Below are positions 4,397 to 56,030 of a stretch of DNA of 64,000 bases, piece after piece. A program made the translations under genes and the position numbers. Position 1 is the first letter of the stretch; the number at the start of each line of letters is the position of its first letter. The DNA is taken from positions 128,381 to 192,380 of the forward strand of contig CAZLKB010000002.1 of NCBI GenBank assembly GCA_964560005.1. The letters are read 5' to 3'. The stretch comes from an uncultured Gammaproteobacteria bacterium (GTDB lineage Bacteria > Patescibacteriota > Patescibacteriia > Patescibacteriales > GWC2-42-12). The notes beneath the pieces are model-generated. The model saw only the letters and a list, made by a program, of their open reading frames with translations, did not search any database and was not told the DNA's origin.

Positions 4397-4440
4397 ACAC
4401 GCTTCAGCCCGCCTGACGGTAGGCAGGCGTGTATTTTTAT
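4397..4440 (+). terminator. Hairpin downstream of hpf (possible intrinsic terminator)
   Basis: ACACGC (4397-4402) pairs with GCGTGT (4427-4432). These enclose GCCTG/CAGGC (4411-4415/4424-4428) and are followed by a T-rich run. Confidence 0.45.
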
Positions 4441-4530
4441 CTACAAATAATGTAATTCGAATACTACAAATAGCACACGAATACTACGAATTATTTTTGT
4501 AGTATTCGAATATCATTCGTAGTATATGCA
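4441..4530. repeat. AT-rich palindrome upstream of secA (CGAATACTAC word family)
   Basis: A 16-bp perfect inverted repeat: ATTCGAATACTACAAA (4455-4470) against TTTGTAGTATTCGAAT (4496-4511). Further copies of CGAATACTAC/GTAGTA words lie nearby. Confidence 0.7.
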
Positions 4531-4539
4531 TTATAATTT

Positions 4540-7533
4540 ATGTCTATTATCGATAAAATTTTCGGTGATCCTAATGAAAAGGTAATAAAATCCTTGCGCC
4601 CGGTCGTGGAGCAGATTAATGCTTTGGAAAATAAGTTTAAGGCAATGAGCGATGAAGAGTTGCGCGCGCAAACCGCGGAGTTTAGAAAAAGGTTGGGGGT
4701 GAGCAGTGAATTTAATCCCCTTAACCCCTCCGCCTCGGCAAGCCTAAGGCGAGACGGGCCTTTGGAAGTGGGGCAAGACCTGGGAAAAAAATTAAAAGAA
4801 ATTTTACCCGAAGCTTTCGCCGTGGTCAGGGAAGCGGCTAAGAGAGTCTTGGGGCAGAGGCATTATGATGTTCAGCTTATGGGCGGCATGGTATTGCATC
4901 ACGGCCAAATCGCGGAAATGAGAACCGGCGAAGGCAAGACTCTGGTAGCGACTCTGCCGGCTTATCTAAACGCTTTGCCAGGAAAAGGCGTGCATGTAAT
5001 CACAGTTAATGATTACCTGGCTAAGCGCGACGCCGAGTGGATGGGCAAGGTTTATAGTTTTCTTGGGTTAAGTGTGGGGTGCATAACGCATGAGCAGGCG
5101 TTTAAATATAATTCAGCTCAGAATGGAATAATCCCCCTAACCCCCTTTATCAAGGGGGCAGATAATGAAAGCAAATTAATTCTGGTGCCGCGTAAGGAAG
5201 CATATAACTGCGACATTCTTTATGGCACCAACAACGAATATGGCTTTGATTACTTAAGAGATAATATGGTGCCTGATTTAGCGTCAATGGTGCAGCGGGG
5301 TTTGAATTACGCGATCGTTGATGAAGTAGACTCAATTTTAATTGATGAAGCCAGAACGCCGCTGATTATCAGTTCTCCGGCCGAAGAATCAACGGATAAA
5401 TATTTTCAATTTGCCGATCTGGTGGAGAGGCTTAAGGAAAACGAAGATTATAATATTGACGAAAAAATGCGCGCCGCCACCTTAAGCGAAGCTGGCATTG
5501 CTAAAATGGAAAAATTAATGGGCGTGGAAAATATCTATACCTCCGGCGGAATTTCTGAGGTGCATCACATTGAGCAGGCTTTAAAAGCACGGGTGCTATT
5601 TAAACGAGACCGAGATTATGTGGTAAAAAACAACGAAGTGATTATTGTTGATGAATTTACCGGCAGATTGATGTATGGCCGGCGCTATAGCGAGGGACTC
5701 CACCAGGCGATTGAAGCCAAAGAAAAAGTCAAAGTCCAGCGGGAATCGCAAACTTTGGCCACGGTGACTTTTCAAAATTATTTCAGAATGTATAAAAAAT
5801 TATCCGGCATGACCGGTACGGCCTTAACTGAAGCCGAAGAGTTTTCTAAAATATACAAGCTGGAAACAGTGGTTATTCCGACTAATAAGCCGATGACCAG
5901 AAAAGATCTTAATGACTTGGTTTATCGTAGCGAACAGGGTAAATTTAAGGCCGTGGTGGAAGAAGTTAAGCGCCGCCACGCAACCGGCCAGCCGATTTTA
6001 GTCGGCACCATTTCAATTGAACGAAATGAAATTCTAGGCGAGATGCTGGAGCGGGAAGGCATCACACCCCAGGTTTTAAACGCCAAGCATCATGAAAAAG
6101 AAGCGCAGATCATCGCCCAGGCCGGCCGGCTGGGCACGGTCACCATCGCCACCAATATGGCCGGCCGCGGCGTGGACATCATGCTCGGCGGAGTACCGCC
6201 AAAGAAGTCAGAAGTCAGAAGTCAGAAGTCAGAAAGGAATGCTGATTTAGCATCAGACAATTCTGAATATGAAAAGTGGCGCGAGGAATACGACAAGGTG
6301 AAAGAACTGGGAGGGTTGCATATCATCGGTACCGAGCGGCATGAAGCCAGGCGCATTGATAATCAGTTAAGAGGCCGGGCCGGACGCCAGGGCGATCCGG
6401 GCTCCAGCCAATTTTATGTTTCCATGGAAGACGACTTAATGCGCATTTTCGGCGGCGACCGCATGAAAAATTTAATGACCACTTTAAGAGTGCCGGAAGA
6501 TATGCCGATTGAAAACGGCATGGTTTCCCGCTCCATTGAGTCGGCCCAGAGAAAAGTTGAGGGCAATAATTTTGACATCAGAAAACACTTGGTTGAGTAC
6601 GACGATGTGATTAATAAGCACAGAGAGTCAATTTATCGGAAGAGAAAAGAAATATTGGAATTGGCGGAAGGCAGCACTGTCATTCTGGAGCCGAAGGCGA
6701 TAGAATCCCATGGTTCAGAGGTTATTCAGGGAGATCCTATCGGTCGCTCCGCTCCCTCCAGGATGACAGAAATCTTTCTAGAAATGATTTTAAATGAAAT
6801 TGAACAAGCGGTGATTTTTCATACGGCGGCCGATGCTTCCAAAGACTGGAACATTAACGAAATTTCTCAAGTTATCTCAACTATTTTTACAGTTGAGCCA
6901 AAATTGAAAGATGATTTAGCCGGCTTTATTAAAGATGGAGATAAATTGGATAAAGTGAAGATTAGGACGAATATTATTGAGTATCTGGAAAAATTAACCA
7001 GGAGTAATTATGAAAAAATTACCAGACTGGCGGCCGAAGCCGGTCTAAATTGGCAGCAGGTGGAAAAAGCCGTCTTAATCAGGTCAATGGACATGCTCTG
7101 GATGGAGCACTTGGAGGCTATGGATCATATGCGCGCCGGAATCGGCCTTAGGGGCTACGGCCAAAGAGACCCTTTAATAGAATATAAAAAAGAAGCTTAC
7201 ATTTTATATAATGAATTGAATAATTTAATTCAGAAGCAAGTGGCGTATTCCATCTTTAAAGTGGCTGACTTGGGGAATTTCGCCGTGCCAACCCTTAAAA
7301 CGCGGCCGCAAAATTATATCGCTCCGGCTAAGACCATGGATAAAAATACCGGTTCGTTTTCAGCTTTTAAGAAGGGTGATGACCCTTCGGCTGGCTCAGG
7401 GCGGGATAAAAAAAATCAAATCGTTGATCTGGTTCATGAAAAAGTAAAAGATGCTTTGGGCGAAAAGATCGGCCGTAACGACCCCTGCCCTTGCGGTAGC
7501 GGGAAAAAGTTTAAAAAGTGCTGCGGGAAATAA
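4540..7533 (+). CDS. secA: Preprotein translocase ATPase SecA (with four in-frame palindromic insertions)
   Basis: Motor motifs MRTGEGKTL, DEVDSILIDEARTPLIIS, TNMAGRGVDI and GRAGRQGDPG, plus the C-terminal zinc motif CPCGSGKKFKKCCG. Confidence 0.95.
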   Translation: MSIIDKIFGDPNEKVIKSLRPVVEQINALENKFKAMSDEELRAQTAEFRKRLGVSSEFNPLNPSASASLRRDGPLEVGQDLGKKLKEILPEAFAVVREAAKRVLGQRHYDVQLMGGMVLHHGQIAEMRTGEGKTLVATLPAYLNALPGKGVHVITVNDYLAKRDAEWMGKVYSFLGLSVGCITHEQAFKYNSAQNGIIPLTPFIKGADNESKLILVPRKEAYNCDILYGTNNEYGFDYLRDNMVPDLASMVQRGLNYAIVDEVDSILIDEARTPLIISSPAEESTDKYFQFADLVERLKENEDYNIDEKMRAATLSEAGIAKMEKLMGVENIYTSGGISEVHHIEQALKARVLFKRDRDYVVKNNEVIIVDEFTGRLMYGRRYSEGLHQAIEAKEKVKVQRESQTLATVTFQNYFRMYKKLSGMTGTALTEAEEFSKIYKLETVVIPTNKPMTRKDLNDLVYRSEQGKFKAVVEEVKRRHATGQPILVGTISIERNEILGEMLEREGITPQVLNAKHHEKEAQIIAQAGRLGTVTIATNMAGRGVDIMLGGVPPKKSEVRSQKSERNADLASDNSEYEKWREEYDKVKELGGLHIIGTERHEARRIDNQLRGRAGRQGDPGSSQFYVSMEDDLMRIFGGDRMKNLMTTLRVPEDMPIENGMVSRSIESAQRKVEGNNFDIRKHLVEYDDVINKHRESIYRKRKEILELAEGSTVILEPKAIESHGSEVIQGDPIGRSAPSRMTEIFLEMILNEIEQAVIFHTAADASKDWNINEISQVISTIFTVEPKLKDDLAGFIKDGDKLDKVKIRTNIIEYLEKLTRSNYEKITRLAAEAGLNWQQVEKAVLIRSMDMLWMEHLEAMDHMRAGIGLRGYGQRDPLIEYKKEAYILYNELNNLIQKQVAYSIFKVADLGNFAVPTLKTRPQNYIAPAKTMDKNTGSFSAFKKGDDPSAGSGRDKKNQIVDLVHEKVKDALGEKIGRNDPCPCGSGKKFKKCCGK
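4714..4773. repeat. CCCCTAACCCC-family palindromic element, in frame inside secA
   Basis: AATCCCCTTAACCCC...GTGGGG, 60 bp (20 codons), translated FNPLNPSASASLRRDGPLEVG. The 5' end matches the elements at 5130 and 55435. Confidence 0.6.
5130..5158. repeat. CCCCTAACCCC-family hairpin element inside secA
   Basis: AATCCCCCTAACCCCCTTTATCAAGGGGG, with a CCCCC/GGGGG stem. Translated as IIPLTPFIKG in a variable SecA loop. Confidence 0.6.
6204..6265. repeat. Tandem 7-mer plus small hairpin inside secA
   Basis: GAAGTCA x4 (6204-6231), followed by a CTGAT-TTAGC-ATCAG hairpin. Translated KKSEVRSQKSERNADLASD after the DIMLGG block. Confidence 0.55.
6677..6769. repeat. 93-bp palindromic element, in frame inside secA
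   Basis: CTGTCATTCTGGAG (6677-6690) pairs with CTCCAGGATGACAG (6756-6769). The inner pair is CGATAGAATCCC / GGGAGATCCTATCG. 93 bp is exactly 31 codons. Confidence 0.75.
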
Positions 7534-11660: not shown

Positions 11661-11800
11661 GAATAAGTAATTTTCAATTTTCAATTTTCAATGAATTTTC
11701 AATTATTAAATTTTCAAATACTAAAGCAGCGTTTTGTTTGAAAATTTAATCATTAATTCATTGGTCATTAATTGAAAATTAAAAATTAGTAAATTGTAAA
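11661..11800. repeat. AT-rich composite palindrome (AATTTTC word family) upstream of mreB
   Basis: AATTTTC x3 tandem at 11669-11689. The left arm ...TTTTCAATTATTAAATTTTCAAA mirrors the right arm TTTGAAAATTTAATCATTAATTC...AATTGAAAATT. Confidence 0.65.
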
Positions 11801-12853: not shown

Positions 12854-12953
12854 TTTAATTTTCAATTTTCAATTTTCAATTTTCAATGAATTTTTAATTT
12901 ATTAATTATTAAATTGAAAATTTAATCATTGTTTGAAAATTGGAAATTGATCA
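12854..12953. repeat. AT-rich composite palindrome (AATTTTC word family) between mreB and mreC
   Basis: AATTTTC x4 tandem at 12857-12884, mirrored by ...ATTGAAAATTTAATCATTGTTTGAAAATTGGAAATTG. Confidence 0.65.
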
Positions 12954-12989
12954 TTGAAAATTAGGAATAAATTAATACGGGAAATTGGT

Positions 12990-18195: not shown

Positions 18196-18325
18196 TACAA
18201 GTGTAAAATGAAAATCTGAAAATGCAAAATGACAATGCAAAAAGTAAAATACAAATTTCTAATTTTCCTATTTCTAATTATTGACAAATTTTTATTGTCT
18301 AATAGTCAATAATTAGAAATTAGTT

Positions 18326-18382
18326 ATTGGGATTTGACCCGCCTCGCGTCGACGAGCGACAGCGAGTCGAGGCGGGTTAGGT
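18326..18382. repeat. 57-bp GC-rich hairpin repeat, copy 1
   Basis: ATTGGGATTTGACCCGCCTCGCGTCGACGAGCGACAGCGAGTCGAGGCGGGTTAGGT is identical to 46897-46953. Stem: ACCCGCCTCG/CGAGGCGGGT. Confidence 0.85.
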
Positions 18383-18424
18383 TAATTAGGAATTAGAGTA
18401 ATTAGATATTTTGCATTTTTAACT

Positions 18425-18474
18425 GTCATTGCTCTGCAATGACCCCGCATCTGCGGGGTGCTAGCGGAGCTAGC
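18425..18474. repeat. Three-hairpin module, copy A
   Basis: GTCATTGCTCTGCAATGAC / CCCCGCATCTGCGGGG / GCTAGCGGAGCTAGC. The exact reverse complement occurs at 43299-43348. Confidence 0.85.
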
Positions 18475-18511
18475 ATTTTTAACTTTGATTTTTCAACTTT
18501 TAATTATTATT

Positions 18512-20221
18512 ATGTCAGAAGAAATCGCGGTTTTTGCGGAAACCAATTTTCGCAACCAATTTAGAAAATTCGGCATTAAACTGGACGATCGGCGCCGGCA
18601 TATGTATTTAGTGGGTAAAACCGGCATGGGTAAGTCCACGGTTTTGGAAAATTTAATTATTGACGATATCAGGCAGGGTAAGGGAGTCATGGTGGTGGAT
18701 CCTCATGGCGATTTGGCCGAAAAAATTATTGAGTATATTCCTACCAGCCGGATTAACGATGTAATTTATTTTAATCCGGCTGACATTGAATTCCCGATCG
18801 CCTTTAATGTAGTAGAGCAGGTAGAACCTCATTTAAGGCACTTGGTAGCCTCGGGCTTAATCGGAGTTTTTAAAAAGCTTTGGGCGGATTCCTGGGGACC
18901 CAGGCTTGAGTATATTTTACGCAATGCGATTTTGGCGATTTTGGATTATCCGGGATCCACTCTGCTGGCGATTACCAGAATGCTGGCGGATAAAAATTTT
19001 AGAAAAAAAGTTATTGAAAAAATTCAGGATCCGGTGGTTAAGTCTTTTTGGGTCAATGAATTCTCCAGCTACGCTAATAATTTCGCTTCCGAGGCGGTCT
19101 CGCCGATTCAAAATAAGGTTGGCCAGTTTTTATCCAGCTCGCTGATTAGAAACATTGTCGGCCAAGTAAAATCATCTATTGATTTAAGAGAGGTGATGGA
19201 TGGTGGAAAAATTTTAATTATGAACTTAAGCAAGGGTAGAATCGGCGAAGATAACTCCGCGCTATTAGGCGCGATGATGATAACCAAGACCCAATTGTCG
19301 GTTATGAGCCGGGTTGATATTTTAGAAAAAGATCGAAGAGATTTTTATCTTTATATTGATGAATTTCAAAATTTTACGACTGAAAGTTTCGCCAACATCC
19401 TTTCCGAAGCCAGAAAATACAGATTAAATTTGATTATGGCTCATCAATATATTGAACAGCTTGGCGAAATCGTCAAGCCGGCGGTTTTCGGCAATGTCGG
19501 CACCTTGATTGTTTTTAGGGTTGGCGCAACCGATGCTGAAGAATTGGTGAAAGAGTTTACCCCGGTATTTTTGGAGGAGGATTTGGTGAATTTATCAAAA
19601 TATGAATTTTACATTAAATTAATGATTGACGGCGTTTCGTCGGATCCTTTTTCCGCTCGCGGACTGCCCCCTTTGAACGAAGAAGAGAAAACCGATAACA
19701 AAGAAAAAGTTATTAAAGTCTCGCGCGAAAGATACGCCAAGCAGAGGGCAACGGTGGAAGATAAAATCATCCGCTGGCATACGAACAATGAAGAAATTGA
19801 AGATAATCATGATAAGACAACCGGAAAGCACGATCCCAGAGAGCAGTCCTGGAGAGCGGGCGAAAGGCGCAAGGATTCAATAAACGCGTCCTCGGCTTTA
19901 GCCGAAGCGGATGAGATTAAACCTCAATTGCGGCCGCGAAGGGATAATCAGCCTGATAAGCAGAAACACGAAGCTGTCTGCAGCCGTTGCGGCAGGTCAA
20001 CCCAAGTGTCATTTCTGCCGGACGGGATTAGGCCGATTTTTTGCAAAGACTGCCTGGTTCTGATTAAGGATGAAAAGAAGAAGGAAATTGAACTTAGATT
20101 AAGAGCTAAACAGCAAGAACTATCCGAAATAGGCTTAATTTCCGGCGGGAAAAGCGGCGAAAAAAATTCTACCGGGCGAAGCCGGCCTCTTGGCCGCGAT
20201 ATGAGCGGCGGGGTAGCTTAA
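18512..20221 (+). CDS. VirD4/TraD/HerA-like P-loop ATPase with C-terminal zinc-ribbon tail
   Basis: Walker A GKTGMGKST and Walker B LYIDEFQNF. The charged tail ends in CSRCGRSTQVSFLPDGIRPIFCKDC. The ATG at 18512 is preferred, because the tracked GTG start lies inside the repeat. Confidence 0.75.
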   Translation: MSEEIAVFAETNFRNQFRKFGIKLDDRRRHMYLVGKTGMGKSTVLENLIIDDIRQGKGVMVVDPHGDLAEKIIEYIPTSRINDVIYFNPADIEFPIAFNVVEQVEPHLRHLVASGLIGVFKKLWADSWGPRLEYILRNAILAILDYPGSTLLAITRMLADKNFRKKVIEKIQDPVVKSFWVNEFSSYANNFASEAVSPIQNKVGQFLSSSLIRNIVGQVKSSIDLREVMDGGKILIMNLSKGRIGEDNSALLGAMMITKTQLSVMSRVDILEKDRRDFYLYIDEFQNFTTESFANILSEARKYRLNLIMAHQYIEQLGEIVKPAVFGNVGTLIVFRVGATDAEELVKEFTPVFLEEDLVNLSKYEFYIKLMIDGVSSDPFSARGLPPLNEEEKTDNKEKVIKVSRERYAKQRATVEDKIIRWHTNNEEIEDNHDKTTGKHDPREQSWRAGERRKDSINASSALAEADEIKPQLRPRRDNQPDKQKHEAVCSRCGRSTQVSFLPDGIRPIFCKDCLVLIKDEKKKEIELRLRAKQQELSEIGLISGGKSGEKNSTGRSRPLGRDMSGGVA

Positions 20222-21069: not shown

Positions 21070-22617
21070 ATGGACTATTTAAAAATCAGCAAAGCTTCTG
21101 ACTTGACCGGTTCCAAGGATAGGAAGCTTTTTCGTATCCTGGAAATTTTGCCGGGTTTCTTATCTTGGGCGACGCTTATAATTTTACTCATACTTTCCTG
21201 GCTTAAACCCGCCTGGGTGGCTTATTTTATTATTGCTTTTGATGTCTATTGGCTGCTCTTGGTAATTTATTTGGGTATCAACCTTTTTGCCGCCAGCGTT
21301 AAGATGAAGCGAAATATGAAAATCGATTGGCGCCAAAGATGCGAGAAATTATCTGCCGGCGCCGGAATTAATTTTAATTGGTCAGAGGTGATTCATTTGA
21401 TTATTTTTCCAACTTATAACGAAAGTTTGGAGGTAATCAGACCCAGTTTCCAGGCGCTGATAAAAGACGGTTATCCGACCGATAAAATGATCGTGGTATT
21501 AGCTATAGAAGAGCGGGCGGGAGAAGAAGCTAAGGCCAGGGCTCGCATAATAGAGCAAGAATTTGGCGGTAAGTTCAAGCATTTTTTAATTTCCGTCCAT
21601 CCCGAGAACATCCCCGGCGAGTTAAAAGGCAAGGGAGCCAACCAGGCCTGGGCGGCCCAGCAGGCCAAGCTGAAAATTATAGATAAATTTAAATATGAAT
21701 ACGATAAGATATTAATCAGTGTTTTTGATATGGACACGGTCGTGATTCCGGGGTATTTCCATTGCTTAACTTATAAATTTTTAACGGTTGAAAATCCCTA
21801 TCGGGCAAGCTATCAGCCGATTCCAATTTATCATAATAATATCTGGCAAGCGCCTTTTTTTTCCAGAGTAGCCGCTTCATCCAACACCTTTTGGCAGATG
21901 ATGCAGCAGATCAGACAGGAAAAACTAGCAACTTATTCCTCGCATTCCATGACCTGGCGGGCCTTAGTTGATATTGATTACTGGTCAACTAATATGGTAA
22001 GCGAGGATTCGCGTATTTTTTGGCATTGCTATTGCTATTACCGAGGCGATTATAGGGTTGAACCTTTATATTTTCCGGTTTCCATGGATGTCTGCATGGA
22101 TTTGACCACCTGGCAAACCATGAGGAATTTATATAAGCAGCAAAGGCGCTGGGGCTGGGGGGTGGAAAATCTGCCGTACCTGATGTTTAACGCGATCAAG
22201 GAAAGAAAAATTTTACCGATGGGAAAGATGATCAATAAAATATTAGTCCAGCTTTACGGCTTTCATTCCTGGACTACCAACGCCTTAATTATCGGCGTTA
22301 TCGGCTGGATGCCGATGATTTTGGGCGGAGATAATTTTAACATTACCGTTTTATCCAGCAATTTACCGGTAGTATCGCGAACCCTGATGGTTGTCGCCAT
22401 GATCGGCATGGTCTTTTCGGCGATTATTTCAACCCTGCTCCTGCCCAAGCGTCCGGCGCGATATAGTATTATTAAAAGCGTTGTCATGGTATTGCAATGG
22501 CTTATTTTGCCGGTAAGTATCATTATTTTCGGGTCAATCCCGGCCCTGGAAGCGCAGACCAGATTAATGCTAGGCAAATACATGGGTTTTTGGGTAACGC
22601 CGAAAATAAGAAAATAA
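21070..22617 (+). CDS. Membrane-embedded processive family-2 glycosyltransferase (cellulose/chitin-synthase-like)
   Basis: N- and C-terminal TM bundles around a GT2 core. Has FDMD and the QQRRWGWG (QxxRW) motif. The ATG at 21070 is preferred. Confidence 0.75.
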   Translation: MDYLKISKASDLTGSKDRKLFRILEILPGFLSWATLIILLILSWLKPAWVAYFIIAFDVYWLLLVIYLGINLFAASVKMKRNMKIDWRQRCEKLSAGAGINFNWSEVIHLIIFPTYNESLEVIRPSFQALIKDGYPTDKMIVVLAIEERAGEEAKARARIIEQEFGGKFKHFLISVHPENIPGELKGKGANQAWAAQQAKLKIIDKFKYEYDKILISVFDMDTVVIPGYFHCLTYKFLTVENPYRASYQPIPIYHNNIWQAPFFSRVAASSNTFWQMMQQIRQEKLATYSSHSMTWRALVDIDYWSTNMVSEDSRIFWHCYCYYRGDYRVEPLYFPVSMDVCMDLTTWQTMRNLYKQQRRWGWGVENLPYLMFNAIKERKILPMGKMINKILVQLYGFHSWTTNALIIGVIGWMPMILGGDNFNITVLSSNLPVVSRTLMVVAMIGMVFSAIISTLLLPKRPARYSIIKSVVMVLQWLILPVSIIIFGSIPALEAQTRLMLGKYMGFWVTPKIRK

Positions 22618-22755
22618 ATTTTTAATTTTTAATTTTGTAATTTTATAAATAATTTTTAATGTCTAATTTTTAAATATTAAAAATTTAAACATTATTTAAA
22701 AATTATAAAATTATAAAATTAAAAATTGTTAAAGTATGATATAATATAACTAAAT
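22618..22755. repeat. AT-rich palindrome (AATTTTTAATTTTGTAATTTT word family)
   Basis: The left arm AATTTTTAATTTTGTAATTTTATA is mirrored by TATAAAATTATAAAATTAAAAATT. The left arm is nearly identical to that at 693-720. Confidence 0.65.
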
Positions 22756-35569: not shown

Positions 35570-36085
35570 TTATTGACTTTTGTTTATCTTCTTTAAAATT
35601 ATTTTTATGGCGTCATCTGGATTTCTAGATGAATTATCTATTTTGAATTCGTTTTTTATCGAGTCTCTTTTAATAAGTTGCTTATTCCAATTTAATGCTT
35701 CGCTAGCATTTCTAAAACCAGAATCTCGCGTATCATCCAAAACTCGATTAGACAATTCATTGTCATCATTAACCACTAAACTGAAAATTAAATAGTTTGT
35801 CGGATCAAAAATTTTTGGAATTTCTATAATTCGCCTGTCCAGAAGGTCGTTAACAATCACATAAGGGTATTTATTCTTAATATAGTTTTTGAGAATGAAT
35901 ACAAGATTTTCAAATGACATCTGCTCTTCTTTGTCGCTCTTATTGCTCCAAGATTTATTTAAGTGAAATTCCCTAATCCATCCGAAATCTATTAAAACAG
36001 AATTGTCCAATTTAATTTTCAGCTGATTTGAAATAGTAGTTTTCCCACTGCCAGGTGCTCCAGCTATAAAAATAATTTTTGTCAT
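35570..36085 (-). CDS. P-loop NTPase / small-molecule or nucleotide kinase-like protein (array gene)
   Basis: Walker A IAGAPGSGKTT at the N-terminus. 171 aa, of AAA_33/kinase-like size. Confidence 0.6.
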   Translation of the reverse strand: MTKIIFIAGAPGSGKTTISNQLKIKLDNSVLIDFGWIREFHLNKSWSNKSDKEEQMSFENLVFILKNYIKNKYPYVIVNDLLDRRIIEIPKIFDPTNYLIFSLVVNDDNELSNRVLDDTRDSGFRNASEALNWNKQLIKRDSIKNEFKIDNSSRNPDDAIKIILKKINKSQ

Positions 36086-36163
36086 ATTTATTGAAATTTT
36101 TAGTTTAGAACTACAGAGCTCATTTTTATTTCCGATAACGTATCCGAATATCGGAAGTTTGAC

Positions 36164-36391
36164 TTATTTTTTATCGTTCTCAAAAAATTCACTTTCTTTT
36201 AATCCGGATTGGAGCAAAATTGATTGAAATGTGCCATAAGGAATTTCTTTTTTACTCATTTTGATAGTGACATTTTTCGTCGGGCTGCCAGTTTTGCGAA
36301 AACGCGCATGTGACCCCTTTTGACGGACAAAAAAGAAGCCCTTTTGGCGAAGGACTCTTAATATCAAACTTAGTACAACCGGTTTAGGCAT
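36164..36391 (-). CDS. hicA: HicA-family mRNA interferase toxin
   Basis: 75 aa. LRQKGFFFVRQKGSHARFRK is the YcfA/HicA signature. It overlaps hicB by 8 nt. Confidence 0.8.
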   Translation of the reverse strand: MPKPVVLSLILRVLRQKGFFFVRQKGSHARFRKTGSPTKNVTIKMSKKEIPYGTFQSILLQSGLKESEFFENDKK

Positions 36392-36602
36392 ATTTAAAAG
36401 TAAGCGGTATTAGATCTGGTCGCTCCACTTTATTAATTTTAGAGGCAGGTATATCTTCTAAATGAAGTTCTAAGGCTTCTTGCAAGCATTCCAGGGCTTC
36501 TTTTTTGGTATCGCCGAAGCTGGAAACCGCGGTGTTGAGGTTCCAGGCTACATAGTATTTACCCTCTTTCCAAACTACATTTTTTAAGTCAATTTTGCGC
36601 AT
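36384..36602 (-). CDS. hicB: HicB-family antitoxin
   Basis: 72 aa. YYVAWNLNTAVSSFGDTKEALECLQEALELHLE-like UPF0150/HicB N-domain pattern. It sits upstream of, and overlaps, hicA. Confidence 0.75.
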   Translation of the reverse strand: MRKIDLKNVVWKEGKYYVAWNLNTAVSSFGDTKKEALECLQEALELHLEDIPASKINKVERPDLIPLTFKYA

Positions 36603-36791
36603 ATTGTTATATAATTATGCTTTTATCATACTAAAAGAGAAAAAATAAGTCAAATTTGGATGAGGGGCGAGCCGAGCTCCGAACCCGATATTCGGTGTTA
36701 GGCGAGGGTTCTTTTGCCCTTCCTTAATGCAATTATATCAAATAAAAGAGCAAAAGAAAGCGCAGCGTCCCCTTGAGTTGCCAGCCCGCTG

Positions 36792-37220
36792 TTACCTTTC
36801 TTCAACAGAAACACATTTATTTGATATACATTTTGCGTCGGGGCCAGAACCACAATCATTAATAGAAAGAGAACATTTCTGGTTATATATATCCATTTTT
36901 TTATAAAATTGTTCTTTGTCGATTTGTTTATTGATATAGTGATAACATCCAAATTCTATATAAGTCCCTCCTAGCATAATTACATCACAGTCTGAATCAG
37001 TTTGGCAATAGTTTGTTTTTTCTAAATCATTTTCAATCTCGTTATGTAAATCCTCGCAAACAAACTCACCCGATGGTTGATTGATAATAGGCAATTTAAT
37101 AGATGTTTTTTCAATTAATTCATTAGATTGTGGTTCAGTAAATTTATTTATTAACAGAAATGTGGCTGCAGAAATTAAAATTACTAAAGTAATTATCAAA
37201 TAAATGTGTTTTGTGCTCAT
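36792..37220 (-). CDS. Membrane-anchored Cys-rich exported protein (array gene)
   Basis: N-terminal TM anchor, then 9 Cys in about 90 residues (CEDL, YCQTDSDCD, FGCYHY, KCSLSINDCGSGPDAKCISNKC). Confidence 0.5.
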   Translation of the reverse strand: MSTKHIYLIITLVILISAATFLLINKFTEPQSNELIEKTSIKLPIINQPSGEFVCEDLHNEIENDLEKTNYCQTDSDCDVIMLGGTYIEFGCYHYINKQIDKEQFYKKMDIYNQKCSLSINDCGSGPDAKCISNKCVSVEER

Positions 37221-37354
37221 ATTGATAGAATTAATTATATTAGAATATTTAATAATTTCGACCTGAAAGGCGGGCTGGCAATTTCGTCCTAACGTTTCGG
37301 CGTATCTGAAGTTTCCGTTTTTGTGATATTTGATTAATAAAAAATGACAAATCT

Positions 37355-37876
37355 TTATTTTTTGCTCAAAGACGAGTTCATTATTTCTATGGTCAGCTTG
37401 ATCTGTCCTTTTGGGTCATTTAACATATAACCGCCATATTTTAATTCATCAAATCTACCATGAGCAACGTGGTTTCTGAGATCGTTAATTTTCCAAAGCA
37501 TTGTAATATAATTTTTATCCTTGGGCATAGTGGCATAATGTTTTTCAATTAATGATATTTTTGACCCAAAAGGTAATTTGTCAAGCATCCCGTTAATCAT
37601 AGGATTTTCAATTCCAAACATTTTATTCTTCTCAACAAAACTAATAATGTCGTTAATTTCACGTTCCATAAAATAGGTAATCCAAAAGACAAATTCTACT
37701 GCTTCAAATTGATCGTCTGTTATATTAAAACGTTTTTGAGCAAAAAGTTTGCCCATTTTTAATTCTTTTAGACCATTAAAATCAACCCCATGTTTTTCAA
37801 AAGTCTCAATGGCTTTATCTGGGTCAGAACTTAGAAATGCCATTATTTTATCGTCTAAAGATTTGTCATTTCCCAT
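37355..37876 (-). CDS. HEPN-motif protein (Abi-like candidate RNase)
   Basis: 173 aa, all-helical character. INDLRNHVAHGRF contains the Rx4H HEPN motif in its RNxxAH form. Confidence 0.5.
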   Translation of the reverse strand: MGNDKSLDDKIMAFLSSDPDKAIETFEKHGVDFNGLKELKMGKLFAQKRFNITDDQFEAVEFVFWITYFMEREINDIISFVEKNKMFGIENPMINGMLDKLPFGSKISLIEKHYATMPKDKNYITMLWKINDLRNHVAHGRFDELKYGGYMLNDPKGQIKLTIEIMNSSLSKK

Positions 37877-37933
37877 ATTTTAAATCACAAAAAAAGGAAA
37901 TTTGCGTGAGCAAGCGTTAAGAATAAAATTATC

Positions 37934-38308
37934 TTAATTATTTTTAAACTTTTTCATTTTACTCCGCATAACGAATATAAGAACAATCCATAAAAGTGCA
38001 AGGCTGAATATAGTATCAAAAACAACCATCATCAAAGCCGCAAAACTGTCCCCAAAAACTGAAAAAATTGCCCCTAAAAGAAGTGATATATAACCGGTAG
38101 TTACTCCTTGGGCTGACATAAATTCTCTTGTCATCATATCTATTATGCTTAATATGGTAAGGGCAATAAATATTCTAAAAAATATACGATATTTTTTATA
38201 TTTATCTGTGTCAGAAATTTTTTCAGTTTTTGCTTCCACAATTTTTTGTTTTTCAGCCGCTTTTTCATTTTCCTCTTTGTATAAATCCTTCATTTTTACT
38301 TCGCTCAT
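37934..38308 (-). CDS. Small membrane protein (charged N-terminus plus about 3 TM helices), upstream partner of the HEPN gene
   Basis: 124 aa. It lies 57 nt upstream of the HEPN ORF on the same strand. Confidence 0.5.
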   Translation of the reverse strand: MSEVKMKDLYKEENEKAAEKQKIVEAKTEKISDTDKYKKYRIFFRIFIALTILSIIDMMTREFMSAQGVTTGYISLLLGAIFSVFGDSFAALMMVVFDTIFSLALLWIVLIFVMRSKMKKFKNN

Positions 38309-38403
38309 ACTTTTTTATTTAAAAATAATTAAGATAATTTTATTTAGCTTGCGAACCAGATACGCCGTGTTAGGCGATGTATTTGTAAAAAATTATTTTA
38401 TTC

Positions 38404-38877
38404 TTATTTCGCTTGCTTACTTTTTAGGTCATATAAGGTCGCAATGACTATAAAATGAAATAGAAAAATTATAAGAGGAATTTGAAAATTTTGATAAATT
38501 AAAAAGATTACGGCATAAATAACAAAAGCTTGAATTAAAAAATAAATATTGTTTGAACCGTCTATTAACGTAAAATACCATTGCTTTTTTTCTTTCCCAA
38601 TATTTTGAACAGCAGCTTTTTGAAGCGAATTTATACCATCATTTATTTTAAGTATATAATCGGCAAGCATAATAGGTATTAAAGACAATAAAAAAGTTAT
38701 CAAAATTTTCAAATTCCCTATGTTTGATTTAGGTATAATTTCTTCACTAAATGTAGCTATAACTAACAGGGCTATCATTAGTTCCATAACATAAATTATA
38801 GTTCTAAACCTTTCGCCAATTAAATCATAGCATTTACCACCGAAGAATTTTAATTTTTCTATTTTATCGTTATCCAT
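38404..38877 (-). CDS. Polytopic membrane protein, unknown function (array gene)
   Basis: 157 aa with about 4 TM helices. Confidence 0.5.
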   Translation of the reverse strand: MDNDKIEKLKFFGGKCYDLIGERFRTIIYVMELMIALLVIATFSEEIIPKSNIGNLKILITFLLSLIPIMLADYILKINDGINSLQKAAVQNIGKEKKQWYFTLIDGSNNIYFLIQAFVIYAVIFLIYQNFQIPLIIFLFHFIVIATLYDLKSKQAK

Positions 38878-38904
38878 AATTAATAATTTTTTACAAATAT
38901 TTCG

Positions 38905-39037
38905 TCCTAACGTTTAGGCATATCTGAAGTTTGCCGAAATGAAATGAAGGCAAATTTGGGTGAAAGAATTTTTTACTCCTTATTAAAATACTATTGATGA
39001 AAAATTCTTGAACCAGATATGCCTTGTTATGTGATGT
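38905..39037. repeat. attC-like paired site, unit 5 (133 bp, compact)
   Basis: TCCTAAC-GTTT-AGGCATATCTG-AAGTTT (38905-38932) pairs with GAAC-CAGATATGCCT-T-GTTATGTGATGT (39010-39037). Internal hairpins: TTTGCC/GGCAAA and AGAATTTTT/AAAAATTCT. Confidence 0.65.
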
Positions 39038-39096
39038 AAATTTTTTTATCTCGTTTTTATAAATCAACTATGTCTTTTTGAAAGAAAATTTGATTT

Positions 39097-39930
39097 TTAA
39101 TTTGGCGAAGGGCAGAGGGGTTGGGGGTGAATGCCCTGAGCCAAATTACTTTGTTTTTGTTCTTGCTGTTGAAATAAAGTAGGACAACTATTATATTTTT
39201 TGATTCGATTTATTATTAGCTTGTGGTAATCTTTGTTTATTTCAAAACCGACATACTGTCTATCATTTGCCAAGCATGCAATAGCCGTTGTTCCCGTTCC
39301 CATAAATGGATCAAAAACAATTCCATTTTTTGGACAACTTGCTTTTACCATTCTTTCTATTATTTCTAATGGTTTTTGTGTTGGATGGTTTTCTCTTTCA
39401 GGGTCTTGAGCATGTATTCTTGATGTACTCCATAAATCTTTTGGATTGTAGCCCATTTCTAACCATTTTTTCCCAACAAATATAGACCTAGTTCGTGCTT
39501 TTTTTGTTTTCTCGTCATAAGGAATTCTTATACTGTCTAAATCAAAATAATAATCATTATCTTTAACAAAAAAACCTATATTATCATGAACGGAAGAAAA
39601 TTTTCGCGTTGAACCACCCATGCTTGGCACACGTCTGTCCCAAATTATTTCATTAACCATTCGTAATTTCTTTTTTAAATATACAAAAATTTCTGGAGAA
39701 TATTGCCAGCTTAAAAAAATGTAAAAACTGCCGGTCTTTTTTAGTTTAGGTAAAACTGCATCAATCCATTGATAAGTCCAATTCAGATAATCTTCAGCTG
39801 ATTTTTGATCTGAATCATTGCCATAATCTTTACCTAAACAATAAGGAGGATCAGTCAATATCAAATCAATAGAATTATCTTCTATTTTATCAATTCCCAA
39901 TAAAATATCTTCATTAAAAATTTTATTCAT
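39097..39930 (-). CDS. DNA methyltransferase, beta-class N6-adenine or N4-cytosine
   Basis: Motif IV LILTDPPY lies near the N-terminus. HPTQKP is present. Motif I FDPFMGTGTT lies near the C-terminus. Confidence 0.9.
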   Translation of the reverse strand: MNKIFNEDILLGIDKIEDNSIDLILTDPPYCLGKDYGNDSDQKSAEDYLNWTYQWIDAVLPKLKKTGSFYIFLSWQYSPEIFVYLKKKLRMVNEIIWDRRVPSMGGSTRKFSSVHDNIGFFVKDNDYYFDLDSIRIPYDEKTKKARTRSIFVGKKWLEMGYNPKDLWSTSRIHAQDPERENHPTQKPLEIIERMVKASCPKNGIVFDPFMGTGTTAIACLANDRQYVGFEINKDYHKLIINRIKKYNSCPTLFQQQEQKQSNLAQGIHPQPLCPSPN

Positions 39931-39932
39931 AC

Positions 39933-40532
39933 CTATTTCAAAATTATACTTTTTGATTTTTCTTTTAACATTTTTAAAAATTCATCTCGTGTCCTATATA
40001 CTTTATCGTGTCTATATGTGGCTTGTATTTTATCATTTCTTGGATTTACATATATTGGCAAAAATTGTGGTGAGAAAACCTCTAAATAATCTTTAACAAA
40101 ACTTATTTTTATATTTTCAAATTTAATACCAAAACAAGCATATATTAAAGTGTAATTTTTATTAACACTGTATTGAAAATAAAGTTTTTCTACCGCAGAA
40201 ATATCATTTTTATTTTCTTTACCTTCGATATTGTGAATTTTTACATTTATAAAATAGCTTTTGCCTTTATAAATAATTTCGCAATCGTGTAGCGAGGTAT
40301 CTGGAAAATCAAAATTAACTTCATCTAAGCCAAGTTTTTTAGCGTTAAATTTAGTTTGTTGTGTAATAACCTGCTCAACTAGCCAACTTACCGATCTAGT
40401 GTGTGCTTTAAGTCCGTAAGGTAAAATTTTGCTATCTGTAATATCAAAACTAGGCAGTATCGTTAGAAGTTTTATGTAAATATTTTTTACAAATTCTAAA
40501 TCTTTTTCTATTTCTTTTATTTCGTTTTTCAT
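39933..40532 (-). CDS. Candidate type II restriction endonuclease (partner of the methyltransferase)
   Basis: 199 aa, ending 2 nt before the MTase start. It has a possible PD...(D/E)xK-like stretch (FPDTSLHDCEI...INVK). The assignment rests on context. Confidence 0.5.
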   Translation of the reverse strand: MKNEIKEIEKDLEFVKNIYIKLLTILPSFDITDSKILPYGLKAHTRSVSWLVEQVITQQTKFNAKKLGLDEVNFDFPDTSLHDCEIIYKGKSYFINVKIHNIEGKENKNDISAVEKLYFQYSVNKNYTLIYACFGIKFENIKISFVKDYLEVFSPQFLPIYVNPRNDKIQATYRHDKVYRTRDEFLKMLKEKSKSIILK

Positions 40533-40570
40533 AATAAAGTTTGGTAAAATTAGCGATTTGTTATAATTCT

Positions 40571-40579
40571 ATTATAGCA
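40571..40579 (-). promoter_or_regulatory. Extended -10 element (TGCTATAAT on the minus strand) upstream of the R-M pair
   Basis: Plus-strand ATTATAGCA reads as TGCTATAAT on the minus strand, about 35 nt upstream of the REase ATG. Confidence 0.4.
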
Positions 40580-40767
40580 AAATTTTTTATAATAATCCAT
40601 TTTCGTAGCGAAGCGGAGAAAATACCTTATACCCCCCTCTTTAAAAAATAAAAATCAAATTTTCGTCGTATTTTAAAGCACAAAACTTGAAAATACCACT
40701 AAGATAAAAAAATTTATTTCATATAACTCCTCTTTATACGAATAAAATATATAAAATTCGCAGTAAT

Positions 40768-40795
40768 TTGTATATTATGCGAAATATGGTATAAT
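40768..40795 (+). promoter_or_regulatory. Candidate promoter of the recombinase gene
   Basis: TTGTAT (40768-40773), 16-nt spacer, TGGTATAAT extended -10 (40787-40795). Confidence 0.45.
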
Positions 40796-40839
40796 TTTTA
40801 GTAAGTAAAGTTTTCTAATAATATTATAGCTTAATATAT

Positions 40840-41660
40840 ATGCAATTAAAAGAGTTGTTAGAGAGAATTGAAAACGAGCTTAAGCTTAGGAATTACAGCC
40901 GTAAAACCATTAAGAGCTACTTGATTTGTTTGACTGATTATTTCCGCTATATTAAAAATGTGGTGAAAAATCCTGATATCGGCCTGATTAAAAATTATCT
41001 TTTGGAAAAGCAGGGTCGGGGGCAGTCTTCGCAGACGATTAACCTTCATCTTAATGCCATAAAGTATTTTTATCGGGAAGTTTTTAAAAATAATATCCCA
41101 ATAGAAATTAAATTCGCTAAAGTATCAAATAAACTGCCGATCGTTTTGTCCAGAAATGAAATAGAAAAAATAATCGGTTCAATCGGCAACCGTAAGCATA
41201 AACTGCTGATCGCCCTAGCCTATGGAGCCGGCCTGAGGGTGAGCGAGTCCATAAATTTAAAAATTAAAGATGTGGATTTATCGGAATTAGTGATCCATCT
41301 TAAGGACGCTAAGGGCGGCAAAGACCGGCTAACCATAATTCCCGAAAGCCTAAAATCAGGGCTGAATGAAATTATGGCCCTGCGCGACAAAAATGATTAT
41401 GTCTTCGCCAGCGAGCGCGGCGGCCGGTTAACCGATCGGTCGGCGCAAAAAGTATTTGAAAATGCTTTAAAAAATGTCATATTAATAAGGAGGCCACTTT
41501 CCATTCCCTAAGGCACAGCTTCGCCACTCATCTATTGGAGAACGGCGTTGATGTGCGCTACATACAGGAACTCTTAGGTCACGCCAATATCAGGACTACG
41601 CAAATTTACACTAAAGTGACTAATCCAAGCTTAAAGAAAATAAAAAGCCCGCTGGACTGA
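40840..41660 (+). CDS. IntI/XerCD-like tyrosine recombinase, interrupted by a -1 frameshift at an A6 tract
   Basis: Frame 1 (40840-41511) gives [51 protein letters not shown]. The -1 frame (41460-41660) gives [15 protein letters not shown]...[16 protein letters not shown], carrying the HxxR, H and Y catalytic residues. The switch must occur at 41469-41475. Confidence 0.8.
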
Positions 41661-43262: not shown

Positions 43263-43441
43263 CGAATAATGTAAAATGTAAATTTTAAAATAAAAAATGC
43301 TAGCTCCGCTAGCACCCCGCAGATGCGGGGTCATTGCAGAGCAATGACAATGCAAAATTTAAAATTTAGAATTTAGAATTGTTAATTTTACATTTTTAAC
43401 TGTCATTTTTCATTTTGATTTTTTAATTTTTCATTTTTATT
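43263..43441. repeat. Composite AT-rich palindrome with embedded three-hairpin module
   Basis: TGTAAAATGTAAATTTTAAAA words are mirrored by TTTTACATTTTTAAC... The module at 43299-43348 is inserted. Confidence 0.65.
43299..43348. repeat. Three-hairpin module, copy A in inverted orientation
   Basis: GCTAGCTCCGCTAGCACCCCGCAGATGCGGGGTCATTGCAGAGCAATGAC is the exact reverse complement of 18425-18474. Confidence 0.85.
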
Positions 43442-45515: not shown

Positions 45516-45564
45516 CCATCAGATAATAATAAAATTAGATGGCTTGTGCTTGTTGGTCAGTTAA

Positions 45565-45688
45565 GTCTTGGCTAAATTTATTTATTTTTTCGCTGCGGAT
45601 CAAATTCTTTATGTGCCGGCCGGTCAGTCCGTTCGGCTGAGCTCACGACGAAGCCTCTCTTCAAAAATAAATAAATTTAGCCAAGACT
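45565..45688. repeat. Conserved-core / variable-stem element, copy 1
   Basis: Stem: AGTCTTGGCTAAATTTATTTATTTTT (45565-45590) pairs with AAAAATAAATAAATTTAGCCAAGACT (45663-45688). The core CGCTGCGGATCAAATTCTTTATGTGCCGGCCGGTCAGTCCGTTCGGCTGAGCTCACGACGAAGCCTC is shared with 53438-53509. Confidence 0.8.
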
Positions 45689-46700: not shown

Positions 46701-47036
46701 GTGGAAAATGCACAATGTAAATTTTAAAATGAAAAATTAACCCAGTGAAATAATTGCAAAGCGAATTTTACTGGGCGGGACAATTTAAAATTAAAAATTA
46801 ATTTCTAATATCTAATTAATCTAATTTTTGATCAATGGCCAATTCCTAACCTGCCTACCGGCATTCAGGCGATTAAAGAAAATTTATAAATTAGAAATTG
46901 GGATTTGACCCGCCTCGCGTCGACGAGCGACAGCGAGTCGAGGCGGGTTAGGTCAATTAGGAATTAGAATAATTAGACATTTTCAATTTTCAACTATAAT
47001 TTTTCATTTTGATATTTACATTTTTAACTTATCATT
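46701..47036. repeat. Composite AT-rich palindrome with embedded GC modules
   Basis: AATGTAAATTTTAAAATG/CTAATT words are mirrored by AATTAG/TTTTCA words. GC modules lie at 46850-46870 and 46897-46953. Confidence 0.65.
46897..46953. repeat. 57-bp GC-rich hairpin repeat, copy 2
   Basis: Identical to 18326-18382. The flanking AATTAGGAATTAGA words are also shared. Confidence 0.85.
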
Positions 47037-47609: not shown

Positions 47610-47719
47610 AAATGTAAAAATCAAAATGTAAAATTATTGTATAATTATTTCATGAAAAATTTATTAAATTTTTCACTCCATAATTTTAAATTTTAAGATT
47701 TAAAATTTACATTTTTTAT
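47610..47719. repeat. AT-rich palindrome (TGTAAAA word family)
   Basis: AAAATGTAAAAATCAAAATGTAAAATT is mirrored by AATTTTAAGATTTAAAATTTACATTTTTT. The centre is TGAAAAATTT...AAATTTTTCA. Confidence 0.65.
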
Positions 47720-53263: not shown

Positions 53264-53412
53264 TTTTATTTTTATCTTTATTTTTGTTTTTTGTCAACTT
53301 TTTTGACTATGATATAATTATAGCACATTATTTTAAAAAAAGCAAGGTTGCTTGATTAATGTCATTCTGGTAAGATAAAAGCAAATGGATTGCCCTAGTT
53401 ACGGTCATAAAG

Positions 53413-53533
53413 TTTTAGCTGGATTAATTTATTTTTTCGTTGCGGATCAAATTCATTATGTGCCGGCCGGTCATTCCGTTCGGCTGAGCTCACGACGAAG
53501 CCTCGTTTCAAAAATAAATTAATCCAGCTAAAA
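53413..53533. repeat. Conserved-core / variable-stem element, copy 2
   Basis: Stem: TTTTAGCTGGATTAATTTATTTTTT (53413-53437) pairs with AAAAATAAATTAATCCAGCTAAAA (53510-53533). The core at 53438-53509 is nearly identical to 45591-45660. Confidence 0.8.
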
Positions 53534-53569
53534 CTAAAATTATTAACTAGCACCATCCATATCAACCAT

Positions 53570-55434: not shown

Positions 55435-55491
55435 AATCCCCCTAACCCCAGTTTCCGCCCGAGGCGGATCGGCCTTGGGCCGAAAAGGGGG
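55435..55491. repeat. CCCCTAACCCC-family element in the rplJ leader
   Basis: AATCCCCCTAACCCC...AAAAGGGGG encloses the hairpins CCGCCCGAGGCGG and CGGCCTTGGGCCG. Same 5' end as the secA insertions. Confidence 0.7.
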
Positions 55492-55505
55492 TAAAATTCA
55501 ATAGT

Positions 55506-56030
55506 ATGCCAAAGACTAAAGAGCAAAAAAGAACGATTCTAAAAGAATTAACCGAGAAAATCGGTAAAGCCAAGTCAATAGTTTTTGCAAAATACAGCGG
55601 CTTGGGCGTTAAGGATAATGAAGATTTAAGATCAAGGCTGCGCCAAGAAAATAACGAGTATTATGTCGCTAAAAAGACACTGTTTGATTTAAGTTTAAAA
55701 GATAAGGGCATAGCCGGCTTGGAGGTAAAGAAATTTGAAGGCCAGGTGGCGGCAATTTTCGGCTATAGCGACGAAGTTTCTCCGGCTAAAATAGTCGGCC
55801 AGTTTAAGAAAGAAAAAGAAGGCAAGATAGAATTTATCGGCGGCATTTTGGAGAATAAGTATATTAACGCGCAGGAAGTTACTAACTTGTCCAAACTGCC
55901 TTCGCGGAAAGAGCTTTACGCCCAAATCGTCGGCTCTATCAACGCGCCGGTGGCTAATTTCGTCAACGCTTTGGCCGGGAATATCAGGAACTTAGTTCAA
56001 GTCTTAAAAGCGGTCAGCGAGAAAAAATAA
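55506..56030 (+). CDS. rplJ: 50S ribosomal protein L10
   Basis: 174 aa with an L10-typical N-terminus. It is followed by rplL. Confidence 0.92.
   Translation: MPKTKEQKRTILKELTEKIGKAKSIVFAKYSGLGVKDNEDLRSRLRQENNEYYVAKKTLFDLSLKDKGIAGLEVKKFEGQVAAIFGYSDEVSPAKIVGQFKKEKEGKIEFIGGILENKYINAQEVTNLSKLPSRKELYAQIVGSINAPVANFVNALAGNIRNLVQVLKAVSEKK

Follow-up and report, generated by a model that had tools for sequence, protein, structure and literature searches.

Short repeat elements probably inserted in frame into the loops of a patescibacterial secA gene

The secA gene on a 64,000-nucleotide stretch of the metagenomic contig CAZLKB010000002.1 (the whole stretch analysed, hereafter the window) contains four in-frame segments within an otherwise canonical SecA. 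Comparison with orthologues and with related metagenome loci indicates that this gene has, in all likelihood, been colonised by short non-autonomous repeat elements of families that also fill the spacers of the genome and of its relatives. At least three such families are present in secA: a mini-hairpin family (segments 1 and 2), a heptanucleotide array (segment 3) and a double hairpin of about 90 bp of the form TGTCAT...ATGACA (segment 4). An earlier sequence-only reading of the window had located four extra segments in secA and translated them; the segments are indeed extra at these places, close orthologues having either nothing or other repeats there, and the translations are correct. The features on which the comparison draws are the following.

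4540..7533, + strand: secA, intact, 997 aa, host of the insertions (open reading frame (ORF) and translation)
4714..4773, + strand: segment 1, a 60-bp GC-rich repeat with head AATCCCCTTAACCCC, core TCCGCCTCGGCAAGCCTAAGGCGAGACGGGCC and a tail ending in GGGG; encodes NPLNPSASASLRRDGPLEVG
5127..5161, + strand: segment 2, a mini-hairpin element, AATCCCCCTAACCCCC-TTTATCA-AGGGGG; encodes IIPLTPFIKGA
6203..6234, + strand: segment 3, a perfect heptanucleotide array, AGAAGTC x4.6 (Tandem Repeats Finder, 100% matches); encodes KKSEVRSQKSE
6677..6769, + strand: segment 4, a 93-bp TGTCAT...ATGACA element, apparently two head-to-head hairpin units; encodes (T)VILEPKAIESHGSEVIQGDPIGRSAPSRMT(E)
55435..55492, + strand: noncoding relative of segments 1 and 2, with a AATCCCCCTAACCCC head and a GGGGG tail like theirs

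The SecA of the window is identical to a database protein (P0001) that carries the Pfam domains PF07517, PF01043, PF21090, PF07516 and PF02810, and the full domain set of the family is present: DEAD motor, preprotein cross-linking domain, wing/scaffold and C-terminal zinc finger. Solved SecA structures are matched at E-values of about 1e-233, and the GEGKT and DEVD ATPase motifs are invariant across an alignment of 111 SecA sequences. The gene has a GC content of 45% in an AT-rich window (39%). Its closest relatives, at 61–82% identity, are labelled by their sources as Patescibacteria, Parcubacteria or Falkowbacteria metagenome-assembled genomes.

The four segments had been described as palindromic or repeat elements; their repeat nature stands, but palindromy does not hold for segment 1, whose fold is no better than that of shuffled sequences, nor for segment 3, which is a tandem array. 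The fold z-scores against shuffles for segments 1, 2, 3 and 4 were +0.8, −0.9, −1.8 and −1.7, i.e., no or weak excess, and secA contains 11 inverted repeats of at least 10 nt, two of which are longer than the arms of segment 4. As the palindromy of single segments is weak and similar inverted repeats occur elsewhere in the gene, the case for insertions rests on comparison.

SecA proteins were aligned with 60, then 111 close orthologues (61–82% identity), and a codon alignment was built from the window secA and four orthologous loci with conserved synteny, in which the inserts were defined at the DNA level; L081 is a locus from the genome of P0003, and L082 carries the secA of P0004. Across the 111 orthologues the protein aligns almost gap-free outside the four sites and a C-terminal linker. 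At sites 1 to 4 the number of residues ranges over 5–43, 15–70, 3–70 and 2–76, respectively, so these are not ancestral loops conserved at the protein level, the outcome that the sequence-only reading had named as speaking against insertion. Short, repeat-free loops are found at such sites in P0007, P0014, P0018 and P0022, and in the codon alignment P0007 lacks any insert at sites 1 and 2 and has only short loops at sites 3 and 4.

Across the orthologues the same four loops hold at least seven classes of insert peptide, and the class found at one site differs by lineage. Recurring classes are KSPQPPLLKGE / IPLTPFIKG, RSYRSADASLQDD, VIARSDSDEAIS...EIASLPPVARNDK, VIPG...AGMT, NDQ/FQFPISNFQTN, PPKADPPLAE and KFKVQSSKFKV. 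Single elements also recur within one gene: the secA of P0005 holds one element at both site 3 and site 4 (37 nt, 100% identity) with a further copy in a spacer, and that of P0013 has one AT-rich element at both site 2 and site 4. Spacer copies exist for the hairpin at site 2 of P0010 and for the inner hairpin at site 2 of P0003, the latter in three copies. An identical 21-mer is read as IPLTPFV in P0004 and as SPLPPLL in P0002, in different frames. The same DNA thus appears in different frames at different sites, which argues that the conserved unit is the DNA and not the peptide.

Segments 1 and 2 appear, by their sequence, to represent one family of CCCCC-loop-GGGGG mini-hairpins with a AATCCCCYTAACCCC head. 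The window contains exactly three occurrences of this 15-mer, at 4714, 5130 and 55435, against an expectation of about 0.25 with up to two mismatches; the 5' end that the two segments had been said to share with a copy in the rplJ leader is therefore exact. Segment 1, with a GC content of 63% vs 45% for secA, lies between N-terminal helices of nucleotide-binding domain 1 (NBD1), near E. coli SecA residues 55/56 (E. coli positions come from the HMMER alignment, with residue numbering assigned in this analysis). It is missing at site 1 of P0007, and over its 46-nt core it shows 95.7% identity to a copy at site 2 of the P0004 secA (L082 10627–10672, E 2e-16). By these data segment 1 is a repeat, not convincingly a palindrome. 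Segment 2 occupies an NBD1 loop near E. coli SecA residues 157–165, at a site that is empty in P0007 and P0003. It had been delimited as a 29-bp unit at 5130–5158; the element is real, but these limits are not, since 29 is not a multiple of three and the insertion relative to P0007 amounts to about 12–14 codons.

The proposed dispersal of segments 1 and 2 is supported by DNA copies at other secA sites and, for segment 2, in spacers of other contigs. Over 31 nt segment 2 is 96.8% identical to site 1 of the P0004 secA, and it has relatives at site 2 of P0004, at sites 1, 2 and 4 of P0002 and upstream of rplJ in the window. Noncoding copies lie in unrelated contigs (L155 8036–8067, 96.9%; L142 628–654), and a coding copy was found in a glycosyltransferase gene (L099 1792–1810). 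The noncoding relative in the window is located 15–70 nt upstream of rplJ, the ORF at 55506–56030, which matches PF00466 (ribosomal protein L10). The element folds at −34.3 kcal/mol, a value matched by none of 200 shuffled sequences (z −4.3). Its core consists of a double mini-hairpin, CCGCC-CGA-GGCGG and CGGCC-TTG-GGCCG, and shows 88.6% identity to the coding insert at site 3 of the P0004 secA (L082 11756–11790).

Segment 4 sits where the long scaffold helix ends, ahead of the helical wing domain. Its arms, 6677–6690 and 6756–6769, are complementary at 13 of 14 positions over a distance of 65 nt, and the corresponding 107-nt fold reaches a z-score of just −1.7. Neither arms nor fold being exceptional alone, the status of segment 4 as an element rests on its copies elsewhere. 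One of these is orthologous, at site 4 of P0003 (94.6% identity), and full noncoding copies occupy two spacers of the P0003 genome (L081 18043–18139 and 21439–21527). The second of these is enclosed by a different TGTCAT...ATGACA element: in the spacer after murB (L081 21414–21555) a GTCATGCTGGAG...CTCCAGAATGAC element is nested inside a GTCATTGCGAG...CTCGCAATGAC element. At site 1, P0003, P0010 and P0002 have further copies of the 3' half of segment 4. This half reads DPIGRSAPSRMT in the secA frame and RSYRSLRSLQDD in frame +2, the latter closely resembling the site 1 peptide (RSYRSADASLQDD or a near variant) of P0003, P0010, P0017 and P0019.

A scan of metagenome contigs for GCTCCCTCCAGRATGAC, combined with the loci of this analysis, yielded at least 49 distinct full-length members of the segment 4 family, 61–135 nt long, at 39 loci. 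Most are noncoding, and about 10 of the members listed lie in long stop-free ORFs. By Pfam, the hosts of in-frame copies encode a heavy-metal P-type ATPase, TatD, a UvrD helicase, a TilS-like PP-loop ATPase, a glycosyltransferase of family 4 (GT4) and topoisomerase I. Orthologous GT4 genes contain different elements at the same inter-domain site (L099 1792–1810 and L181 6531–6619; KIPLTPFAKGGL vs VILEGAQRPIES...SRMT), which repeats the pattern seen in secA. The insertion of repeats is thus special neither to secA nor to the source genome. Peptides of further palindrome families (SFPRRRES; VIPNSFRDL...MLKQVQHD) were also observed in the L181 and L196 (topoisomerase I) proteins. Phages were considered as a vector of the family; two exact 17-mer matches were found in viral contigs, neither accompanied by the 5' arm of the element, and gave no evidence for phage carriage.

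The family has termini of 12–14 nt (TGTCATNCTGGAG / CTCCAGNATGACA). Between them, covariation supports two local stems: of 44 copies, 39 maintain pairing in the 5' stem (H1), using five types of pair, and all 44 do so in the 3' stem (H2), using three. Each half closes on itself through ATNCT/AGN'AT, in segment 4 as ATTCT...AGAAT and ATCCT...AGGAT. A single long hairpin was rejected, because the long-range terminal pairing is complementary at the variable positions in only 3 of the 44 copies. Segment 4 had been read as one 93-bp palindrome; the near-complementary arms are confirmed, but the element is better described, on covariation in sequence, as a putative head-to-head doublet of two related hairpin units.

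Segment 3 is taken here as a repeat insertion of a different, non-palindromic class, and its dispersal is unproven. It is the only tandem repeat that Tandem Repeats Finder detects in secA, and it lies within a variable loop of nucleotide-binding domain 2 (NBD2), where HMMER aligns query residues 550–590 with E. coli SecA. The sequence-only reading had described it as GAAGTCA x4 plus a hairpin. The tandem array was recovered; the hairpin is weak (z −1.8), and positions 6235–6265 correspond to ordinary loop residues in the orthologue alignment. The closest orthologue, P0002, has a TTAGAAG-type array at this site; other peptides of 7-nt periodicity are found there in P0013, P0043 and P0101, and none in P0003 and P0007. 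Arrays of period 7 are typical of the window's spacers, often as arms of long AT-rich inverted repeats. Examples are located at the following positions.

777–842, 2522–2578, 11669–11717: period-7 spacer arrays
12857–12887, 22617–22673, 29116–29195: period-7 spacer arrays
43354–43438, 47682–47715, 56098–56128: period-7 spacer arrays

Within this set, AATTTTC x4.4 at 12857–12887 is contained in an inverted repeat at 12856–12963, and the AATGACA units at 2522–2578 match coding 'NDQ'-type secA inserts of relatives. A long AT-rich imperfect inverted repeat with TACGAATA-type units, 4440–4528, lies directly upstream of the secA start. Rfam found no family at gathering score in the whole window; weak sub-threshold matches to a plant microRNA family near secA, over this inverted repeat, are meaningless.

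An AlphaFold2 model built on the 111-sequence alignment (mean predicted local distance difference test, pLDDT, 75) predicts that the segments form flexible surface loops of SecA. Six stretches of the model have pLDDT below 50, four of which are the segments: residues 61–74, 196–209, 557–566 and 713–737 for segments 1 to 4, each between helices and strands that were modelled with confidence. The remaining two cover residues 872–875 and the C-terminal linker, 915–966. The earlier suggestion that the segments sit where SecA tolerates changes of length is in line with these unstructured loops and with the varying loop lengths of the 111 orthologues. All 120 closest orthologues listed are full-length ORFs of 868–1051 aa despite very different inserts. 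No stop interrupts the frame used in coding copies of the segment 4 family, and the noncoding copies of L081 contain stops in five or six of the six frames. Predicted tryptic peptides that span insert junctions are AIESHGSEVIQGDPIGR, LGVSSEFNPLNPSASASLR and YNSAQNGIIPLTPFIK.

The disordered C-terminal linker may harbour a fifth small insert, tentatively assigned from the sequence alignment.

7383..7409, + strand: possible fifth insert, DPSAGSGR, in the C-terminal linker of SecA; residues absent from most orthologues

At this position P0008 and P0019 have longer 'NPSAG...SGQAG' inserts.

Genes around secA are more stable. A comparison of four genomes revealed no internal indel in SecD, the BNR-repeat gene, MreC or MurB. 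The M50 peptidase contains two inserts, of 45 aa in L082 and of 5 aa in L081, neither evidently a repeat element. A regular-expression scan of all window ORFs for element-type peptides gave convincing results for secA alone. The 'ANDQLSITNNELRI' stretch of a pfkB-like gene was considered as an insert and set aside, as it looks like normal family sequence, and a scan for 30-nt GC peaks (at least 70% GC) in other genes was too noisy to be of use, returning 114 regions, mostly ordinary coding sequence. The stability of the neighbours and the lack of another convincing gene in the window suggest that the secA loops are hot spots of insertion, either unusually permissive or unusually targeted.

We hypothesize that the copies arise at the DNA level, either by transposition with an enzyme acting in trans or through copying by recombination or template switching, and that they would land widely. 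In an essential gene, selection would then spare only those copies that keep the frame, contain no stop and fall in permissive surface loops. The survivors would be translated as additional disordered loop residues, tolerated rather than needed.

Several results weigh against this reading. No transposase or other mobilising enzyme was found, and Pfam revealed no Y1 (HUH) transposase in 30 window ORFs, about half of the ORFs of the window. The junctions of the window copy, the P0003 copy and the two L081 spacer copies of segment 4 lack target-site duplications. Within the 64-kb window, segments 1 and 2 have just one noncoding relative and segment 4 has none, and a second AGAAGTC array was found neither in the window nor in 2.3 Mb of loci. 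A HMMER search of the 33-aa segment 4 peptide against 1.84 billion cluster representatives retrieved no true relatives, only two spurious repetitive proteins; a word-indexed search with the concatenated segment 4 and segment 1 peptides (57 aa) likewise gave no candidates. Translation of the inserts is something that we infer. Lastly, the arms of segment 4 are 100% identical to those of P0003, synonymous sites included, which simple neutral tolerance does not explain.

This last point extends to the whole element. When the window gene is compared with P0003, nucleotide identity is 94.6% for segment 4 vs 78% for the whole gene, third-position identity is 93.5% vs 58%, and all 28 codons of shared residues are identical vs 61% in the gene; segment 4 is the most conserved 31-codon window of secA in this pair. 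Simple vertical inheritance by the two genes was rejected: in 200 of 200 neighbour-joining bootstraps P0003 groups with P0002, P0005, P0007 and P0008, none of which has the segment 4 element at site 4, and it is never the sister of the window gene. The identity may stem from a recent site-preferential insertion, from gene conversion or exchange, or from constraint at the nucleotide level. [quoted passage not shown] If so, near-identical DNA would be maintained in genes otherwise about 22% diverged, and the loops would constitute a fast-evolving cassette system or hold a nucleic-acid-level function inside coding sequence.

Such a function could also be what keeps the elements in the gene, where they would serve as mRNA hairpins for ribosome pausing or message stability, or as DNA sites of a recombinase. 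This explanation is compatible with colonisation by repeats, and the conservation of segment 4 in P0003, third positions included, together with the compensatory changes that preserve the local stems of its family, speaks for it. It is nevertheless unlikely, since the covariation is seen in noncoding copies as well, so that the structure belongs to the element and not to secA; orthologues manage when these sites hold no insert or an unrelated one; many other, unrelated genes have inserts too; and recent insertion or gene conversion would equally be expected to give high identity. Colonisation by repeats can further be set against the view that the segments are ordinary lineage-specific SecA loops, grown by slippage and point mutation under protein-level selection, with an incidental likeness to repeats. 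The four sites do vary in length across bacteria, HMMER leaves them unaligned to E. coli SecA or places them in the NBD2 variable loop, and slippage alone could explain the array of segment 3, of which no other copy was found. For segments 1, 2 and 4, however, DNA of 90–97% identity is present at non-orthologous secA sites, in spacers, in unrelated genes and in other frames. Protein-level selection cannot produce this pattern, which refutes ordinary loops for these three segments and makes them very unlikely as an account of the whole.

Removal of the segments before the mature protein, by RNA processing, ribosomal bypassing or protein excision, is highly improbable. Nothing direct favours it, although the elements form hairpins as bypassed elements do; the byp elements of yeast mitochondria are ribosomally bypassed. 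The full-length state of all 120 listed orthologues argues against removal, as does the stop-free frame of coding copies, absent from noncoding ones and expected only if the inserts are translated, and no intein or intron signature and no Rfam family match were detected. Repeats are a classic cause of misassembly and the source is metagenome-assembled, which would allow the segments to be artefacts in which repeats were misjoined into secA. Independent NCBI, JGI and ENA assemblies, however, have inserts of the same kind at the same sites with the frame kept, including the orthologous copy of segment 4 and shared states of segments 2 and 3, and an artefact is hardly credible.

The phenomenon as such is known, from Rickettsia palindromic elements (RPEs) and from intragenic repetitive extragenic palindromic (REP) sequences; the element families and the host clade are new. 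A literature search found no report of in-frame repeat colonisation in Patescibacteria/CPR. RPEs are short palindromic repeats that occur in noncoding DNA and in frame in unrelated housekeeping genes, where a surface position is thought to be compatible with the fold (PMC10969869, PMC3184786). The sequence-only reading had cited them as precedent, aptly as regards the mode of behaviour. Here too, several families coexist, with noncoding copies and in-frame copies in unrelated proteins (six others for the segment 4 family, a glycosyltransferase for segment 2), and segment 4, at 93 bp and with palindromic ends, is near RPE size, although two local hairpins are favoured over one long hairpin. RPEs, by contrast, measure about 100–150 bp and are palindromic overall, whereas segments 1 to 3 span 29–60 bp and segments 1 and 3 are not palindromic. 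Further differences are the presence of a tandem heptamer array as one class, of four elements in one gene, and the re-use of the same loops by at least seven peptide classes across orthologues. The host phylum is Patescibacteria/CPR, and we liken the elements to RPEs by behaviour without filing them as such.

GTAG- and CGTC-tagged REPs are described as small GC-rich stem-loops, mostly extragenic, often downstream of genes and often in head-to-head dimers (Di Nocera et al. 2013, PMC3733652). According to the main text of the same article, some lie wholly within ORFs of known proteins, sometimes twice per gene, for which a position in flexible loops is argued; different REPs occupy about the same site of recB in two Xanthomonas species; tagged REPs are known from several phyla; and secA is not named there (PMC3733652). 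The elements described here likewise are small GC-rich stem-loops, for the most part outside genes, frequently behind one and frequently in head-to-head pairs, with further copies inside ORFs and with repeated and same-site insertions. They differ in that no GTAG or CGTC tag is found at the ends of segments 1, 2 and 4 or of the rplJ copy, the sole GACG being internal to segment 1; that the shared terminus of the segment 4 family is TGTCAT; and that no gene for a REP-associated tyrosine transposase (RAYT, IS200/IS605-type Y1) is present among the 30 window ORFs scanned with Pfam.

In 2011, Bertels and Rainey reportedly described REP doublets (REPINs) as the mobile unit of REPs, mobilised by RAYT transposases; a summary of the RAYT role is given in PMC3733652. 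The segment 4 family resembles REPINs in consisting of two related hairpin units in inverted orientation, and differs from them in having no associated transposase (30 window ORFs) and no GTAG head. E. coli SecA has a variable (VAR) loop in NBD2, which some bacteria lack. Segment 3 is placed by the HMMER alignment exactly within this loop; unlike an ordinary VAR loop, part of it here is a perfect 7-nt tandem repeat, and in the relatives P0005 and P0004 it also holds palindromic elements. [quoted passage not shown] The segment 4 family alone is MITE-like, with terminal inverted repeats, a length of about 60–135 bp against some 70–300 bp for MITEs, no coding capacity of its own, nested copies and in-frame fusions, but the four sets of junctions examined show no target-site duplication.

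In-frame colonisation of housekeeping genes by repeats, best known from Rickettsia and from scattered REPs, thus probably extends to the CPR. Length variation and low-complexity insertions in SecA, TopA and UvrD of these bacteria may be repeat DNA and not lineage adaptation, and alignments of such marker proteins need their insert loops masked. Peptides encoded by the repeats, among them ...PLTPF.KG..., VIARS...ARND and VILE...SRMT, will make unrelated proteins look homologous. The thousands of related metagenome genomes, with their recurrently hit loops, offer a natural system for the questions raised by RPE-like elements: their movement, its rate, and the functional gain of loops.

Other repeats were observed in the window. 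An element of about 125 nt is present in two copies, 45564–45688 and 53411–53535, which are 91% identical and have a perfectly complementary terminal stem of 26 bp around a conserved GC-rich core, GTGCCGGCCGGTCA.TCCGTTCGGCTGAGCTCACGACGAAGCC. The stems of the copies differ at five positions, each compensated in the opposite arm. Both copies lie directly upstream of genes, a pfkB-like gene and a cytidylyltransferase gene, and have no Rfam match; from their sequence, the pair may be a structured RNA or a MITE. Spacers at 18315–18415 and 46886–46990 share a nearly identical repeat of some 100 nt, which includes a GC-rich hairpin of 16 bp (GACCCGCCTCG...CGAGGCGGGT). A terminator-like double hairpin, CCCCGCATCTGCGGGG plus GCTAGCGGAGCTAGC followed by a T-run, is found at 18428–18480, 43290–43345 (reverse complement) and 29286–29317, at several gene ends.

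A block of hypothetical genes at 33000–41600, mostly on the minus strand, includes an N6/N4 DNA methylase (39097–39930), a zeta-toxin-like P-loop protein (35570–36085) and a short tyrosine recombinase (40840–41511). Together with a TraG/VirD4-like coupling protein at 18458–20221, this block may represent remnants of integrated mobile DNA.

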